The notes under the pieces: model-generated
What the model saw: only the letters and a program-made list of their open reading frames with translations
Told to the model about the DNA's origin: nothing
Databases searched by the model: none
From: Kiritimatiellia bacterium
GTDB lineage: Bacteria; Verrucomicrobiota; Kiritimatiellia; CAIKKV01; CAITUY01
Length of the DNA: 64,000 nt
Direction: 5' to 3'
NCBI GenBank assembly: GCA_038330175.1
Contig: JBBQNS010000001.1
Coordinates: 15,552-79,551 of the forward strand
Made by a program: the position numbers and the translations under genes
Part shown: positions 36,019-43,890 of the stretch, one piece after another
Position numbering within the stretch: the stretch's first letter is position 1
Layout: every line of letters begins with the position of its first letter

Positions 36019-38139
36019 TCACAACCGCACCACTTTAGCCGCAATATCGTTGACGAATTCCGGCACCCCCACGACCAGTTGGCCTTCGCTATCGGGCGTA
36101 ACCTTGCCCCCATGGGTAATTTCACCGGATACGGTGTCCCACCACTCGAGGCGATAATCACCCGCAGGGAGATTTTTCAGGGCCACCCGCATGCCGGTTA
36201 CCGGCTCGACCTTGGTTCCATACCGTGAAGTGTGCCAGGTGTAGTCAGTGTTATAGATCCACAGGAGCGCACGGCCGGGATACTGAAGTCCTTGCACCGT
36301 GACACGGGGAGCATGGGTCCGATAATTCGTCAGTACCATATGGCCTGTCACAAACATCCCCTCACCGACATTGGTGACGCTGACCGTGTGCTTCCCGGCC
36401 GGAACCGGCACTGTTAATCGATCGCAGTAGAGATCCGCCACTGCGGGATCTTGTGGCTTAATCTTAACCGGGCGTCGCAGCGCCACCACATCGTCAACAC
36501 GGATCTCCGCAATAGGGTCACTCGCGCTCTCCGGACCGCTGACGATGCTGTTACAATTATTCCCTCCACCCCAAACCATGGGGGTGAAGGTCCCCTCCTG
36601 CGGAAAATCTACGTGATAGGTCGTACGGAAATTAACATGCGGCCGGTCCACCCCGTAATAGGTATTGGGCACCAAATGCCCTTCGGTTACCGTGCCATTG
36701 CGCACAATATCGAATTGAGAACGGTAATAATCGCTGCCCGACATCGTAGTGGGCACCTTGAGATCCACGGGCGGATCAAATTGACGCGCAGGTATACCCA
36801 GCGCCGCTACCTCAAGCGGCTGGGTTTCTACCTCATGCCACCGCTCGTCACGCAGGAATTTGGCAATGCCGGTGTAATGCTTTAGCAATCCGTAGCGATG
36901 GATATATTCATCCCAAAACCACATGAAGCCCGGCCCACAGGACTTTGCCAAAACCGCTGTTGACCAGAGAATATTATGCAGCGTACTGCCATCGTGTTCC
37001 CACACACTTTGCGCACCGGCAAAAGACACCCCGACTTCGCTGGCGATATGCGGTTTTCGATAAAGCTCAACATTACTCTCGTGATAGCCTTTGAGCAGTA
37101 TGGAAATGTGCTCCACACTATCCATGTATCCGTAGTGATGAGTGTGAGTAAATTCCATCTCCGGCAAACGCCACATCGCAGCGAAATTCAACGGGTGACC
37201 CGTAGAAGTGGTGATGATGTGTGCGACAGGATCAGCTTGCCGCAATACTTGCGCCATCTCCTGATGCCAGGCCAGCTGCTGATGGGCATTAACCGATTCA
37301 ATACCGCATCCATCGACTTCATTCCAAAACTCCCAACACCAAATCGCCGGACTATATCCCCACCGGGCGGCTACATATTTCATCTTTTCCCGCGTCATCA
37401 ACCGTGCTTCTGGCAGATTGAAATAATCCGCAGTAGTCTTACAGGGGCCCCCATTCTCGAGCCCATAGGGCGACCGGGACAAATTGCCCCCCACCCAGTT
37501 ATTCGCCGCGTCGATACAGAACATGATACGCAATTTCAGTCGTTCCGCCGCTTCAATGATGAGATCAAGCGTGGCACAGCCGCCCATCGATAATTCACCA
37601 AATTTAAGAGGAGTCGCCTCCTCGCTCGAGCTCCAGTCGATAGACTGCGCCCATGAGGTGTTGGCCCACAATCGAAAAGCAGTCCCTCCGGCAGCGGCAA
37701 GCTCCTCCATCATGCTTATTAAATCATCAACGTTCTGTCCAGGTTGCGTATTACAGGACCGTGCCCAGCATAAGTTTGAGCCGATCGGGTAAAAAGCCTC
37801 TCCCGCATCTGTCTTAAAAGTGTAGTGGTTGGGGCTAATCCGCACATAACCGGAATGGGCGGCGGCTTCCGCTTTAAAGGTATCCTCACGGCCCGCCAGG
37901 GTTTTGACCTGAGAAAGTTCAAACCAGGTACGCAGATGATACGTGCCCGCGAGCGTCGGCGCATAGCGCAATCGGAACTCCGATGGGCCGACGGCAAAAC
38001 CGTTCACATGTAGCAGTTTGCCATCAGGCAGGGTAAGCTCTCCTCGCAATACAATTTGCCGCGTATCAAAGGGATTACCTGATACATTCGGAGCCAGCAC
38101 GGATATTTCATAACGGGAAAATACGGGTAAGGTCTTCAT
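36019..38139 (-). CDS. Glycoside hydrolase family 5-like (DUF5060 + GH5 catalytic domain) protein
   Basis: The GH5 acid/base region WEFWNEVDG, a TIM-barrel length, and an N-terminal Ig-like domain. The start at 38139 is MKTLPVF. Confidence 0.7.
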   Translation of the reverse strand: MKTLPVFSRYEISVLAPNVSGNPFDTRQIVLRGELTLPDGKLLHVNGFAVGPSEFRLRYAPTLAGTYHLRTWFELSQVKTLAGREDTFKAEAAAHSGYVRISPNHYTFKTDAGEAFYPIGSNLCWARSCNTQPGQNVDDLISMMEELAAAGGTAFRLWANTSWAQSIDWSSSEEATPLKFGELSMGGCATLDLIIEAAERLKLRIMFCIDAANNWVGGNLSRSPYGLENGGPCKTTADYFNLPEARLMTREKMKYVAARWGYSPAIWCWEFWNEVDGCGIESVNAHQQLAWHQEMAQVLRQADPVAHIITTSTGHPLNFAAMWRLPEMEFTHTHHYGYMDSVEHISILLKGYHESNVELYRKPHIASEVGVSFAGAQSVWEHDGSTLHNILWSTAVLAKSCGPGFMWFWDEYIHRYGLLKHYTGIAKFLRDERWHEVETQPLEVAALGIPARQFDPPVDLKVPTTMSGSDYYRSQFDIVRNGTVTEGHLVPNTYYGVDRPHVNFRTTYHVDFPQEGTFTPMVWGGGNNCNSIVSGPESASDPIAEIRVDDVVALRRPVKIKPQDPAVADLYCDRLTVPVPAGKHTVSVTNVGEGMFVTGHMVLTNYRTHAPRVTVQGLQYPGRALLWIYNTDYTWHTSRYGTKVEPVTGMRVALKNLPAGDYRLEWWDTVSGEITHGGKVTPDSEGQLVVGVPEFVNDIAAKVVRL

Positions 38140-38216
38140 TTGGTGGCACATATTGGAGAGAACCCCATAAACCGCAAGCACGAAAATCACGGTAAATTAT
38201 GAGGGTAGCGTAGGCT

Positions 38217-39215
38217 TTACACCCAGTAATAGAGTTCGCGGTACCATTTGGCCCAAGTTCGGAATCCGGGATTATCGGTCACTTCCGCCGCCGCCACTAG
38301 GGCGTCTGATGGGAACCCAAAAAAACGGTCTTTTCGGCCCAATAAGTTTTTAAACGCTTCCATGGCGGGCAAAAGGCGCTCGTTCCGAGGATGATAGACC
38401 ACCGAGGAGAATACCTTCTTATACCGGCCATTCGGATCGGCTTCAATGGCCGTCGCCAACAGCTGATTCCGCCATAATTGATTCAGCGCGCCCTTGAAAG
38501 GACAGGATGCCTCTTTCTGCAGGGTTTCAAGCGGAAAAGCGGATTCATTCTGCAAGGTGATTTTCCAGTAATTAAACTTTTTCGCAGAATGGTAGTAACA
38601 GTTTTCCCGCCCTAACCGTGCCGCTGCATTACTATCACAGGCCTCCTTGTGCCGGTTCGCCGGACTTCGATAAGCCCCGCATGCAGCAAACTCAGCTTCG
38701 GTCAATTTGTGCTCAATCAACCACAGACACAACTCCCCCTCCTGGTTCCGGTACGCGATCGCGATATCCACATCGGTTCCGCTGTCCGGAGTATGGTCAC
38801 CCAGCCGATTCACCCCTTGATCCCAGAATTCGAGGCGAAAGCCATGGCCGAGTTCCTCAACTGCAATCGATTTCAAGTCCGTCTTAACCGTCCTCAAAAC
38901 CTCAGCAGCACACACAGGCGACTCCATCAGCGGCAAAAATAGATTGGCACACGCGATTTGCGAACTGGCCATGTGGCCGGCGAATTTATGCGTCTTGAAC
39001 GGGAAGTTTTTCTGATGATTCAGGAACTGATCTCGAACGGGCCCATAGAGGTGCGGCAGCCCCTTCTGCATCTTCCCCGGCAAAATAACATCGTATAAGG
39101 CCCCGCCGAAACTGCCCGGCAGAGCCGTTATATTCCGGCTTTTCCACTCGCACAAATGGCGATACATCTCTTGCTGGAATTCATTTAATTGTTCAGGTAT
39201 TCGATATTTTATCAT
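38217..39215 (-). CDS. Hypothetical protein with a PD-(D/E)xK restriction-endonuclease-like motif
   Basis: GTDVDIAIAY...GELCLWLIEHKLTE fits the D-x(n)-(D/E)-x-K core of the PD-(D/E)xK fold. No family match was recalled. Slightly lower GC than its flanks. Confidence 0.4.
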   Translation of the reverse strand: MIKYRIPEQLNEFQQEMYRHLCEWKSRNITALPGSFGGALYDVILPGKMQKGLPHLYGPVRDQFLNHQKNFPFKTHKFAGHMASSQIACANLFLPLMESPVCAAEVLRTVKTDLKSIAVEELGHGFRLEFWDQGVNRLGDHTPDSGTDVDIAIAYRNQEGELCLWLIEHKLTEAEFAACGAYRSPANRHKEACDSNAAARLGRENCYYHSAKKFNYWKITLQNESAFPLETLQKEASCPFKGALNQLWRNQLLATAIEADPNGRYKKVFSSVVYHPRNERLLPAMEAFKNLLGRKDRFFGFPSDALVAAAEVTDNPGFRTWAKWYRELYYWV

Positions 39216-39561
39216 TTAGTCTGCCTATTCCATCATCAACGCCCGCTTTGCGAAAGCGGATTAAAAAAGCGGAGCCAGCCGTGAAGCAGGCCACAAATCC
39301 GAGAATAACGGCCATGCGGAACCACGGCTGAGACAAGTCTTGCCGTTGACGGGCAATGCCCACCAGGGTGCGAACCCATTCGGCCGCTGCTAGCGCCAAC
39401 AAAATCTGCACCATGCGTGTGGCCCATACATTTTTAATCAAAGTGAGCCAGGGGAAAACGAGGCCGAGAACCACCAACGGGAGTATCTCCATCCGGAGGA
39501 AATGCGCCGAGATTAACACTCCGCTCACCACTGATCCAACCATTCCTATTTTACGCGTCAT
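39193..39561 (-). CDS. Small integral membrane protein (~4 TM), probably co-transcribed with the nuclease-like gene
   Basis: Overlaps the 3' end of 38217–39215 by 23 nt. Four hydrophobic helices. The start codon is uncertain (39561 or 39675). Confidence 0.4.
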   Translation of the reverse strand: MTRKIGMVGSVVSGVLISAHFLRMEILPLVVLGLVFPWLTLIKNVWATRMVQILLALAAAEWVRTLVGIARQRQDLSQPWFRMAVILGFVACFTAGSAFLIRFRKAGVDDGIGRLNDKISNT

Positions 39562-39657
39562 ATTTTTGCTTTCGTTGCGATCATAAAGCAAGCTGGGGTT
39601 AAATTCAAACTGCAAAACCTGGTTTGGCAAGGGCCTCTGATGTGATAGATTGAAGCT

Positions 39658-40425
39658 ATGTTCGGACTCATCCATAGACGAAGGCGACGATTAAAGGCGC
39701 AATCATTCCCTACGGAATGGGCGGGAATGATTGAACGTAATGTCCCATTCTATCAGCACCTGCCCCTTGACGATCAGCGCGAATTGCAGGGTCATATCCA
39801 GGTGTTCCTGGCCGAAAAACGGTTTGAAGGATGCGGGGGATTGGCGATAACCGATGAGATCCGTGTGACGATCGCTGCCTATGCCTGCATGTTGCTGCTC
39901 CACCGCGAGACAGACTATTATCCCTTGCTTGTCACCATTCTGGTCTATCCCCATACCTTCGTGGTGCCGCGATATAGGGAGGGGCCAGCGGGCCAGGTTC
40001 TGGAGGGCTCCGAAACGCTGGTAGGCGAATCCTGGCGGTACGGGAATGTGGTGCTGGCCTGGGACGAGGTCCGGCGTAGCGCCTTTGATCCTCATGATGG
40101 GCATAATGTGGTGTTTCATGAATTCGCCCATCAACTTGACGAGGAAGACGGATCCTCGAATGGGGCACCTATTTTACCTCAACGGACCCTGTATGGTGCG
40201 TGGTCCCGGATATTAGGAAAAGAGTATGCCCAACTGGTAAATGATGCCGAGGAAGGACGTGTTTCATTTCTGGATCAATATGGGGCCACGAACCCCGCAG
40301 AGTTCTTTGCCGTTGCGACGGAGGCATTTTTTGAGTCACCGGTCAGCCTGCGCGCCAAACACCCCCAACTCTATTCAGAACTGATGGCCTATTATCAGCA
40401 GGATCCCGCCGCGCGGGATGGATGA
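39658..40425 (+). CDS. mtfA: MtfA (Mlc titration factor A) family zinc-dependent peptidase, M90
   Basis: HEFAHQLD zinc motif, and a C-terminus AFFESPVSLRAKHPQLYSELMAYYQQDP that parallels E. coli MtfA ([28 protein letters not shown]). Confidence 0.8.
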   Translation: MFGLIHRRRRRLKAQSFPTEWAGMIERNVPFYQHLPLDDQRELQGHIQVFLAEKRFEGCGGLAITDEIRVTIAAYACMLLLHRETDYYPLLVTILVYPHTFVVPRYREGPAGQVLEGSETLVGESWRYGNVVLAWDEVRRSAFDPHDGHNVVFHEFAHQLDEEDGSSNGAPILPQRTLYGAWSRILGKEYAQLVNDAEEGRVSFLDQYGATNPAEFFAVATEAFFESPVSLRAKHPQLYSELMAYYQQDPAARDG

Positions 40426-40752: not shown

Positions 40753-43700
40753 ATGAAAAAGTCCTTACTCGATGTTTTCAAAAACCCCAGTGCCGAATAC
40801 CGTGGCGCCCCGTTCTGGGCCTGGAATGGTAAACTCGAACCCGAAGAACTGCGACGGCAGATCCGGATCATGCAGCAAATGGGCTTAGGCGGATTCTTCA
40901 TGCATTCCCGGATAGGGCTCTCCACCCCCTATCTCTCCAAAGACTGGTTCAACTGCATTGATGCCTGTGTGGACGAGGCTAAGAAACAGGGCATGTCTGC
41001 CTGGCTATACGACGAGGACCGTTGGCCCTCCGGCGCCGCAGGCGGTTTGGTCACTAAAAACCCGGAGTACCGGATGCGGAGCCTGAAGGTTCATACGCTG
41101 GACAAATCAACGGATCTTAAATGGACCCAAGACACCTTGGCCGCCTTTGTTGCACGCATTGAAGGTACTTCTGTATACGATGTCCGACAGGTTTCAAAAG
41201 GAAAAACTGCTCCAAAATTAGCCTCTGGAGAAAAATTGATCGTATTCGTCATAGAATTGCAGCAGGGAAGCAACTGGTATAATGGGTTCACCTACCTCGA
41301 CACCCTCAACCACAAAGCCGTCAAAGCCTTCATTAAAGTCACCCACGAGGCCTATAAAAAACATCAGGGCAAGGAGTTTGGACGCACCATTCCCGGGATG
41401 TTCACGGATGAACCCAATCACGGCAACAAACTTGGGCATGACAACAACACGGGCGATCCGGGTGGTCTTCCTTGGACCGGAGCCCTGCCCAAGACTTTTC
41501 AGAAGCGCTATGGATATAACCTCATCCCGCATCTGGTCGAATTGGTCTTTGACGTCGAAGGGAACGGCATACGCCCCGCACGCCTGCACTACCACGATTG
41601 CGTAACACATCTTTACGTCGACGCCTTCAACCGCCAGATCTTTGATTGGTGCGCGAAAAACAAACTGACCTATACCGGACACCAACTGGAAGAGGACTTC
41701 CTTTCCAGCCAGACCAATATGGTGGGCAGTTGCCTCCGCACCTACGAGTACATGCAAGCACCTGGCATGGATCTGCTGACCGAGCGCTGGCGCGTTTTCA
41801 ACACCGCGAAGCAGGTCAGCTCCGGCGCACGTCAGTTCGGTGCCAAATGGCGATTGACCGAAACCTACGGTTGTACCGGCTGGGATTTCCCGTTCGCAGG
41901 TCATAAGGCACTGGGTGATTGGCAGGTGGCCCTAGGCATCAACCTGCGCTGTCAGCATCTCGCTTGGTACACCATGGAAGGTGAGGCTAAACGCGACTAC
42001 CCCGCCAGCATTTTCTATCAGTCACCCTGGTGGCAGTTGTATCCTAAAGTCGAGGATTATTTTGCCCGTATTCATACCGTCATGACTCGCGGCGAGGAAG
42101 TCCGGGATCTGTTGGTGGTCCATCCCGTGGAGAGCATGTGGATGCAAGTCAAAATTGGTTGGCGCGGTAATCCGGCTACTCATCATTTCGACAACCAGCA
42201 CACGAAACTGACTGAATCCCTTCTGGCACAGCATCTTGACTTCGACTTCGGCGATGAGGAACACATCGGACGTCTTGGCAAAGTGGCCAAGCAAAGCGAC
42301 GGTCCCGTTTTTCGCTTGGGCGATGCCACTTACAAGGCCGTTCTGGTACCTCCACTCAAAACCATGCGCCGGACCACCCTCGCCCTGTTGAGGAAATTCA
42401 AGGCAGCGGGGGGTACGGTCGTGTTTGCTGGCACGCCCTCAGCCTATGTCGACGCCGTCGCGTCCACGGATGTGGTTGATTTCGCCACGACCTGTCCGGC
42501 CGTTCCCCCCAACGGATCAGAGGTAGGCGCGCCGTTGGAAAAGACCTGCCGCCGGATTTCAATTGCCGACGCCGCAGGGAAGGAAATCAGTCCAGCCCTC
42601 TATCTGTTGCGCGAAGATCGCGACACCTTCTTCCTCTTCATCTGCAATACTAGTGAGGATTACACCGCCACGCAGGAGTATATCATGAACCAGCCCCAGG
42701 CACGCGACCGTACGCTAGCGTTTAGCGACGTTCGTATCCGCGGGCTCGCGGGTTGTAAGGGCGTTCCAGTTGAATTGAATCCCGAAACCGGTGCCCCCAC
42801 CGCAGTTGATTTCACCCGCAGTGCGAATGGCCTGGAAATCCGTACCAGCCTACCCACCCTTGGCAGCCGCCTGTTCTTGATACCCAAGGTGGCCACCGGC
42901 CTTCCCCTGGCAGCGGCGCCTATACTCAAAACACTGCGGACCAATAAACTCAGCGGTAAGAAATGGGATATCACTCTTTCGGAGAGCCCTAATCTGGTAC
43001 TGGATCGACCGCGCCACAAAATTGGCGACGAACCGTGGCAAAACGCTGAAGAGATCCTGCGCGTTGATCGCAAGGTCCGAGCTTCCATGGGGATCCCGCA
43101 CCGGTCAGGCGATATGATTCAGCCTTGGGCGAGGACTCCTAATTCGAACCCGAAACGGACGCAGGTCTCCTTGGCCTACACCTTCGACTGTCAGGCCTTG
43201 CCCACTGGCGACCTGTTCGTCGCCCTGGAACAGCCACAGACTTTCCGGGTGTCACTGAATGGCGTCCCCGTAAGTCAGGACGCTCAATGTGGCTGGTGGG
43301 TGGATCTCTCGATGCACAAGTTACCACTGGATCCGGCGGTATTGCGCCTGGGCCAGAATGAACTGGTACTGGAATGTGATTATGTCGAAACTCACCCCGG
43401 CTTGGAAATCGTATACCTGCTCGGGAACTTCGGAACACAGGCCCATGGCACGAACGTGGGCATCACCGCCCTGCCAACCTCACTCCAACTGGGCGACTGG
43501 GTGCCACAGGGGTTAACCTTCTACTCCGGTTCCGTCAGCTACCGACGACGCGTCGAGTTGAAGGCCGGGAAAGGCGAGCGCCTGTTCATCCGCGTCCCCG
43601 AATATCGCGGCGTGGCGGTGAGGGTTTTGGTGGATGGCAAGGAAGCCGGAATTGTAGCCTGGGAACCCAATGAAGTCGAAATCACCGGTCTTGCCAATGG

Positions 43701-43890
43701 CACGGCGGACTTGCAGATCCAACTCATCGGGCATCGGCGCAATTCGCATGGGCCTTTCCATCTGACTGAAAAGTGGCCCAGCTGGACTGGACCGGGCGAA
43801 TTCGTCCGGAGCGGCGATGGATGGCTTGACGGCTATCAACTTGTGCCCTGTGGCCTGATGGCCGAACCTGAACTCATCGTGCGAAGCTGA
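40753..43890 (+). CDS. Large glycoside hydrolase, probably GH106-like (alpha-L-rhamnosidase-type); the family is assigned from memory
   Basis: N-terminus EYRGAPFWAWNGKLEPEELRRQIRIMQQMGLGGFFMHSRIGL...WLYDEDRWPSGAAGG recalls the Glyco_hydro_106 N-terminal consensus. A 1045-aa ORF with no signal peptide. Confidence 0.55.
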   Translation: MKKSLLDVFKNPSAEYRGAPFWAWNGKLEPEELRRQIRIMQQMGLGGFFMHSRIGLSTPYLSKDWFNCIDACVDEAKKQGMSAWLYDEDRWPSGAAGGLVTKNPEYRMRSLKVHTLDKSTDLKWTQDTLAAFVARIEGTSVYDVRQVSKGKTAPKLASGEKLIVFVIELQQGSNWYNGFTYLDTLNHKAVKAFIKVTHEAYKKHQGKEFGRTIPGMFTDEPNHGNKLGHDNNTGDPGGLPWTGALPKTFQKRYGYNLIPHLVELVFDVEGNGIRPARLHYHDCVTHLYVDAFNRQIFDWCAKNKLTYTGHQLEEDFLSSQTNMVGSCLRTYEYMQAPGMDLLTERWRVFNTAKQVSSGARQFGAKWRLTETYGCTGWDFPFAGHKALGDWQVALGINLRCQHLAWYTMEGEAKRDYPASIFYQSPWWQLYPKVEDYFARIHTVMTRGEEVRDLLVVHPVESMWMQVKIGWRGNPATHHFDNQHTKLTESLLAQHLDFDFGDEEHIGRLGKVAKQSDGPVFRLGDATYKAVLVPPLKTMRRTTLALLRKFKAAGGTVVFAGTPSAYVDAVASTDVVDFATTCPAVPPNGSEVGAPLEKTCRRISIADAAGKEISPALYLLREDRDTFFLFICNTSEDYTATQEYIMNQPQARDRTLAFSDVRIRGLAGCKGVPVELNPETGAPTAVDFTRSANGLEIRTSLPTLGSRLFLIPKVATGLPLAAAPILKTLRTNKLSGKKWDITLSESPNLVLDRPRHKIGDEPWQNAEEILRVDRKVRASMGIPHRSGDMIQPWARTPNSNPKRTQVSLAYTFDCQALPTGDLFVALEQPQTFRVSLNGVPVSQDAQCGWWVDLSMHKLPLDPAVLRLGQNELVLECDYVETHPGLEIVYLLGNFGTQAHGTNVGITALPTSLQLGDWVPQGLTFYSGSVSYRRRVELKAGKGERLFIRVPEYRGVAVRVLVDGKEAGIVAWEPNEVEITGLANGTADLQIQLIGHRRNSHGPFHLTEKWPSWTGPGEFVRSGDGWLDGYQLVPCGLMAEPELIVRS

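Follow-up and report, generated by a model that had tools for sequence, protein, structure and literature searches.

A Solitary PD-(D/E)xK Nuclease of the REase-ARP/PDDEXK_13 Families, Probably Placed by Chance beside an Unrelated Small Membrane-Protein Gene in a Kiritimatiellia Bacterium

Introduction

The protein families closest to the nuclease described here are REase-ARP (PF22558) and PDDEXK_13 (PF20796, the PGN_0703 family), and no experimentally characterized member of REase-ARP, PDDEXK_13, or PGN_0703 was found in the literature searched, where PGN_0703 appears in one transcriptome paper. According to Iyer et al. 2022 (PMC9503650, section 3.8), a new restriction-fold domain is a variable effector in operons that combine an ADP-ribosylglycohydrolase (ARG) with a rhodanese-type phosphatase, and this domain is described there as rapidly evolving. 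The Pfam name REase-ARP most plausibly refers to that effector. Here, we analyzed a 64,000-nucleotide (nt) stretch from a Kiritimatiellia bacterium (contig JBBQNS010000001.1 of assembly GCA_038330175.1, positions 15,552 to 79,551 of the forward strand), referred to below as the window, in which a gene for a 332-amino-acid (aa) restriction-fold protein overlaps a gene for a small membrane protein. The best explanation, to which we assign a probability of about 80%, is that the former encodes a solitary, laterally transferred PD-(D/E)xK nuclease and lies beside an unrelated small membrane gene by chance. The two open reading frames (ORFs) and their overlap are as follows:

38217..39215, (-) strand: nuclease gene, ORF of 332 aa; solitary PD-(D/E)xK endonuclease, Pfam REase-ARP/PDDEXK_13
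39193..39561, (-) strand: membrane-protein gene, 122 aa with four helices; member of a widespread family without a name or Pfam entry
39193..39215, (-) strand: gene overlap of 23 nt, ATGATAAAATATCGAATACCTGA, taken straight from the sequence

The window nuclease resembles REase-ARP and PDDEXK_13 proteins in passing both family cut-offs, in consisting of a single domain of ~330 aa, and in carrying a D...ExK motif, but this subfamily is solitary and lacks the neighboring ARG or phosphatase genes that the name implies. Like Type IV and other solitary restriction enzymes, it has a stand-alone restriction fold with no adjoining DNA methyltransferase, is laterally mobile, and sometimes occurs in defense islands; however, no modification-reading domain (such as SRA, YTH, or DUF3427) was detected in it, and no GTPase/ATPase partner accompanies it. 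It also departs from Type II restriction-modification systems, as no cognate methyltransferase was adjacent in the window or in the other contexts inspected. Its identity to Can2/Card1, N.BspD6I/R.BspD6I, BstEII, the FokI cleavage domain, NucS, MspJI, and HamA is 7-13%. In contrast to solved restriction-fold enzymes, it has no fused CARF, helicase, or DNA-recognition domain, and its N-terminal helical domain and four-cysteine insert have no counterpart in the solved restriction-fold matches.

Results

The 332-aa protein belongs to a known family of restriction-fold nucleases

A sequence-only reading of this stretch had recognized a restriction-endonuclease-fold core in the 332-aa protein and could assign it to no known family. 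Profile searches supplied that assignment: the protein scored 81 bits against PF22558 (gathering cut-off, 27; E value, 1.4e-22; profile positions 6-227 of 270) and 63.1 bits against PF20796 (gathering cut-off, 27). A homologue with 51% identity (P0102) carries the NCBI name 'PGN_0703 family putative restriction endonuclease'. By these matches, the protein is a further member of a known, uncharacterized family. A homologue search returned 1061 matches (90% clusters) among 5.8 billion proteins, indicating that this nuclease family is rare, and the 120 homologues listed of the 1061 were all single-domain proteins of 301-362 aa belonging to the same two Pfam families. The NCBIfam, PHROGs, and PADLOC libraries contained no match for either the nuclease or the membrane protein, no PADLOC-DB 2.0 family reached an E value of <=1 with either of them, and the PADLOC mREase_IV models did not match the nuclease. 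Likewise, sequence profiles of the nuclease and of the membrane protein found no match in the PDB.

We then aligned 40 nuclease homologues of 47-76% identity (alignment A1; mean column identity, 59%). E129, D150, H169, and K170 were invariant, E168 was conserved in at least 90% of the sequences, and the alignment also displayed a conserved HMASSQ helix and an NQLWR helix. Residues 146-173 of the nuclease read GTDVDIAIAY...ELCLWLIEHKLTE. The core maps as follows:

38706..38831, (-) strand: predicted catalytic core, with E129 at 38829-38831, D150 at 38766-38768, and E168-H169-K170 at 38706-38714

In the AlphaFold2 model of the nuclease (predicted local distance difference test [pLDDT], 87.6; predicted template modeling score [pTM], 0.89), the core residues fall on predicted strands 126-130, 149-157, and 162-170. 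The Pfam matches, alignment A1, and the model together bore out the restriction fold and the catalytic motif and confirmed that the nuclease belongs to the PD-(D/E)xK superfamily. A Foldseek comparison of the model with the PDB, a check proposed along with the sequence-only reading, gave no significant match, although the model itself displays the PD-(D/E)xK strands. Judged by the general PD-(D/E)xK pattern, E129, D150, E168, and K170 would be the catalytic residues; the set looks intact, and the nuclease is predicted to be active. E129, D150, and E168 would hold Mg2+, and K170 would position the attacking water.

Another conserved element of the nuclease lies between the ExK strand and the NQLWR helix:

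38502..38681, (-) strand: four-cysteine insert, with C179, C193, C206, and C238

All four cysteines are invariant in A1, with spacings of x13, x12, and x31. The model is of low confidence in the insert (pLDDT 51-62 at residues 181-210), as expected for a loop organized by a metal. In Cas4 and AddB, one cysteine precedes the core and a CxxC...C group follows it, and together they bind a 4Fe-4S cluster. The four cysteines of the window nuclease point to a possible structural site for Zn or Fe-S, in an arrangement that may differ from that of Cas4/AddB, with the insert cysteines as putative ligands. The putative metal-binding insert and the conserved helical domain at the N terminus may jointly shape the DNA-binding surface.

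No conserved pairing of the nuclease and membrane genes in the contexts inspected

The two ORFs run head to tail on the (-) strand, the membrane gene upstream and the nuclease gene downstream. The sequence-only reading had taken them for a module of a nuclease and a membrane effector, coupled through a 23-nt overlap at the 3' end of the nuclease gene. The overlap is real and of that length, but its direction is the reverse: it joins the 3' end of the membrane gene to the 5' end of the nuclease gene. The overlapped stretch codes for the last residues of the C-terminal tail of the membrane protein, a tail that differs in length and sequence between members of the family (alignment A2). The variable tail of the membrane gene reads 23 nt into the nuclease gene. 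Because the genes overlap, they are probably cotranscribed, and the overlap proves no more than that. Of the cotranslation that had been deduced from it, the overlap and a likely common transcript remain, whereas a functional partnership is not supported.

Co-occurrence was examined in 13 independent contexts: eight around nuclease homologues whose upstream DNA is readable and five around members of the membrane family. The window's own organism (L015) aside, the nearest nuclease relative available is 76% identical. The nuclease homologues were found in the following surroundings:

L001/L008 and a 45-kb contig: nuclease identity 76%; NIF3, a 90-aa soluble ORF, and a methyltransferase-like gene
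L009: nuclease identity 76%; a secreted protein on the opposite strand
L024: nuclease identity 68%; V-ATPase genes
L010: nuclease identity 53%; IS66 fragments, HTH, and M78 peptidase
L011/L012: nuclease identity 51%; YoeB/Phd, IstB, PrimPol-helicase, AbiEi, and PDC-S27 ATPase
L013/L014: nuclease identity 48%; housekeeping genes
L016, L017: nuclease identity 38-42%; two related viral contigs

The two families were adjacent in none of the eight nuclease contexts and in none of the five membrane-family contexts. When a profile of the membrane family was compared with six-frame translations of 24 loci, the matches were confined to the P0122 loci, the window, and L015, which is from the same organism as the window, and no fusion protein joining the nuclease and membrane domains was found. 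Each of the six relatives that are 68-76% identical has its nuclease gene at a different locus, and the membrane gene is absent from all four of those with readable upstream DNA; two others (L002 and L007, 74-76%) lack upstream DNA, and their downstream genes are unlike those of the window. All-against-all BLAST found no recurrent neighbor ORF within 3 kb of the nuclease except in the two related viral contigs. Furthermore, none of the other genes of the window recurs beside any nuclease homologue, so there is no shared synteny. Co-occurrence was thus negative as far as the 13 contexts go, and a conserved functional pair of nuclease and membrane protein is not supported. The neighborhood comparison and the PADLOC search had both been suggested as checks of the proposed module; neither upheld it.

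Explanations for the locus and roles for the nuclease

Because the nuclease family is rare, is spread over distant phyla at ~50% identity, and changes locus among all six relatives of 68-76% identity, we consider it accessory and laterally moving. Named homologues and genome records at ~50% identity or more come from Verrucomicrobiota, Chloroflexota, Actinobacteria, and Thermoplasmatota, an archaeon included. A scan of genomes with the nuclease gave three close relatives, all of them Verrucomicrobiota MAGs, in keeping with a probable origin of the window in that phylum. The gene would have been transferred laterally among bacteria and some archaea, with differing landing sites, one of them beside the membrane gene of the window. 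Two points weigh against a chance neighborhood: an overlap of 23 nt would fit translational coupling, and a rare or lineage-restricted pairing could escape a sample as small as eight nuclease and five membrane contexts. A two-gene anti-phage system, in which the nuclease is translationally coupled to a four-helix membrane protein serving as effector, anchor, or sensor, would account for the same-strand overlap, for the intactness of both genes as members of conserved families, and for the one nuclease homologue located in a defense island. However, the two families co-occur in none of the 13 contexts, no fusion joins them, PADLOC has no match, the surroundings are metabolic with no mobile or defense genes within ~10 kb, and elsewhere the membrane gene overlaps the unrelated YgbA_NO by 4 nt. 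The missing co-occurrence largely refutes this system, the candidate uncharacterized defense system of the earlier reading, which we now regard as very improbable; the lead of a nuclease and membrane-effector defense system is thereby removed as false. Equally slight is the chance that the nuclease was captured in this lineage into a translationally coupled pair so recent or so rare that 13 contexts would not show it.

For the solitary nuclease itself, we tentatively favor attack on foreign DNA in the manner of a restriction enzyme, under modification-dependent (Type IV-like) or other control, because no methyltransferase partner was found; this assignment falls a little short of an even chance. 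That the family is a stand-alone defense nuclease with a four-cysteine metal site, missing from current defense catalogs, is more doubtful, though clearly likelier than the captured pair. Several observations weigh against a restriction role: a mean column identity of 59% across phyla is unusually high for a restriction enzyme, only two of the eight contexts look like defense or mobile islands, the family is without a PADLOC match, the plasmid and phage collections contained no member of it, and nuclease activity has been shown for no member in the literature searched. Defense is made somewhat less likely by how well the family is conserved and by contexts that are mostly housekeeping; it is favored by a patchy distribution, by loci that shift between genomes, and by the two island contexts. 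A DNA-processing enzyme of housekeeping or repair type, such as a structure-specific or mismatch nuclease, would suit the cross-phylum conservation, the plain housekeeping contexts in the window and at L013, L024, and L007, the lack of a methyltransferase partner in any context, and the presence of NucS/EndoMS among the fold matches (none significant in Foldseek). Yet a repair enzyme would hardly be so rare (1061 clusters among 5.8 billion proteins), so patchy over phyla, at different loci even in close relatives, or found in insertion sequence (IS)-rich and defense-rich islands and in two viral contigs; this role is improbable. Less probable still is a homing-type, selfish gene, propagated by cleavage of empty sites, that neither benefits its host nor has any tie to the neighboring genes. 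Such a gene would be solitary, inserted at a different place in each genome, conserved across distant phyla, and squeezed between unrelated genes, as this one is; but the nuclease gene has no flanking direct or inverted repeats and lies in no intein or intron, and the base composition is not foreign. The least credible role is that of effector in an ARG-centered (ADP-ribosylglycohydrolase plus rhodanese-phosphatase) anti-ADP-ribosylation system. The REase-ARP cut-off is passed, and PMC9503650 describes a restriction-fold variable effector in such systems, to which the Pfam name would refer. Against it, no ARG, Nudix/WYL regulator, phosphatase, or chaperone gene was found within ~10 kb of the nuclease gene in the window, nor in the DNA flanking the eight other contexts; the domain in that paper is described as rapidly evolving, whereas the nuclease subfamily is well conserved; the match extends over profile positions 6-227 of 270 and no further; and the protein also matches PDDEXK_13. 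Because no such genes lie near the nuclease or its inspected homologues, we place the subfamily outside the ARG-centered system. Whatever their role, PGN_0703/REase-ARP-like nucleases are conserved and mobile, carry the four-cysteine insert, and could yield new DNA-cutting specificities.

Gene layout and neighborhood in the window

The flanks of the pair and a promoter-like site are as follows:

36019-38190, (-) strand: DUF5060/GH5-like gene, 723 aa, downstream neighbor of the nuclease gene
start at 39658, divergent from the membrane gene: Peptidase_M90 (MtfA) gene, on the other flank of the pair
40753-43890: partial Glyco_hydro_106 match, gene for a 1045-aa protein
39580..39608, (-) strand: promoter-like site TTGAAT-17-TATGAT from a consensus scan, upstream of the 39561 start

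The nuclease homologues share the N-terminal motif YR(I/L)PxxLxxFQ, and therefore the nuclease start at 39215, and with it the overlap, is taken as real. The longest possible ORF of the membrane protein has 160 aa and starts at 39675, from where it would run over the divergent mtfA start at 39658. Its phmmer homologues are ~110-125 aa long, and the alignments begin at about residues 7-12 in both proteins; because homologue lengths and alignment starts agree, the start at 39561 (122 aa) is the right one. The consensus promoter scan found 2 sites versus 2.2 in shuffled sequence, which is no excess; the promoter-like site at 39580..39608 is compatible with the start at 39561 but is no evidence for it.

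The GH5-like gene follows the nuclease gene after ~26-80 nt on the same strand, with a MatE gene next. Since the GH5-like gene also lies close behind the nuclease gene, the tight spacing is no mark of a two-gene unit, and the transcript of the pair may extend to the GH5-like gene. Between a GH5 gene and mtfA is where the earlier reading had set the pair; MtfA is correct, whereas, by its domain matches, the name 'GH5 gene' is loose for the 723-aa neighbor, which is weakly GH5-like (Cellulase, E value 0.004, under the cut-off) and whose sole match above the cut-off is an N-terminal DUF5060. The same reading had pointed to a slightly lower GC content than in the flanks. The difference exists (51.6-52.0% for the pair versus 53.7-54.6% for the neighbors and 54.0% for the window) but is trivial, as FolD in the window has 52.8% and the GC content at third codon positions of both genes is inside the neighbors' range; no foreign base composition was found at the pair.

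The surrounding genes of the window encode an epimerase, a kinase-like protein, an aldose epimerase, DUF2585, a PQQ-propeller protein, MatE, two glycoside-hydrolase-like proteins, MtfA, a PIG-L/ferredoxin protein, FolD, and formate-tetrahydrofolate ligase. The flanks of the pair are thus ordinary carbohydrate and folate metabolism genes, and no integrase, transposase, methyltransferase, or tRNA gene was found in the window surroundings.

Nuclease homologues in an island, in viral contigs, and near PF10672 genes

The 51%-identical nuclease homologue of L011 (553-9835) and L012 lies in a dense defense island, which contains a PDC-S27-like ATPase, a nucleotidyltransferase, the YoeB/Phd toxin-antitoxin, IstB fragments, and AbiEi, as well as an 819-aa PrimPol (AEP-TOTE) together with a DEAD/ResIII helicase.

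Among 2.9 million viral contigs of IMG/VR, L016 and L017 were the sole matches. These contigs of ~64 kb come from one sample and carry the nuclease homologue near the contig end (L016, 5001-5981; L017, 5001-5789), next to a repressor-like gene, a metallophosphoesterase gene, and an SSB fragment. The two homologues may be prophage-border or accessory (moron) genes.

PF10672 (Methyltrans_SAM) genes occur near two close relatives of the nuclease, at L008 4001-5011 (-) and L002 4322-5515 (-). Their products share only 28% identity, and neither has a homologue among the genes of the window. From their sequences, these genes, which we take to be RlmI-type rRNA methyltransferase genes, are probably unrelated housekeeping genes and not the cognate modification enzyme.

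The membrane protein and its family

That the upstream gene encodes a small four-helix membrane protein, as the sequence-only reading had it, was upheld. The AlphaFold2 model (pLDDT, 92) places helices at 2-23, 27-41, 45-75, and 81-100, plus a short C-terminal helix, and hydropathy analysis gave four hydrophobic segments. A phmmer search with the protein returned 738 representatives at an E value of <=1e-3, and a search with the family profile returned 1654 proteins, all without a Pfam domain; the family thus amounts to more than 1,600 proteins that have no Pfam entry. All but one of the named members are called 'hypothetical', and, judging from the names, the family includes proteins of Phycisphaerae, Anaerolineae, Bacteroidota, and Holophagales. 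In alignment A2, A19, H20, W62, R73, and I86 are invariant and the motifs AAHFLR, EW, and PWxR stand out, the invariant histidine sitting in AAHFLR.

With ~120 aa and four helices, the protein resembles CrcB/Fluc. This identity was rejected, as CRCB scored 17.5-18.1 bits (E value, 0.004) against a cut-off of 32.9. In addition, CRCB matched 1 of 41 members, the profile had no match in the PDB, in which Fluc structures are present, and an Rfam scan gave no match, with no fluoride riboswitch found. To our knowledge, AAHFLR, EW, and PWxR are not Fluc motifs. The weak CRCB match is, by these scores, a chance hydrophobic resemblance.

Related loci of the membrane family are as follows:

L018, 3513-4351
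L019, 3313-4345
L021, 3430-4363
L023, 4001-4728

In the five membrane-family contexts, the neighbors were MmgE/PrpD; hemerythrin with peroxiredoxins (AhpC); an F420 oxidoreductase with Nuo; an HPP-family membrane protein; and YgbA_NO, the last being the gene that the membrane-family gene overlaps by 4 nt in one other genome. None of the five held a nuclease gene. The membrane domain was also found fused to a polyferredoxin (P0227) and to DUF1684 (P0238), and other longer proteins showed no significant domain match. Several of these neighbors and fusion partners (hemerythrin and peroxiredoxins, YgbA_NO, HPP, the F420 oxidoreductase, polyferredoxin, and DUF1684) presumably belong to redox or nitrogen-oxide stress families, and the five contexts hint at a link between the membrane family and such stress.

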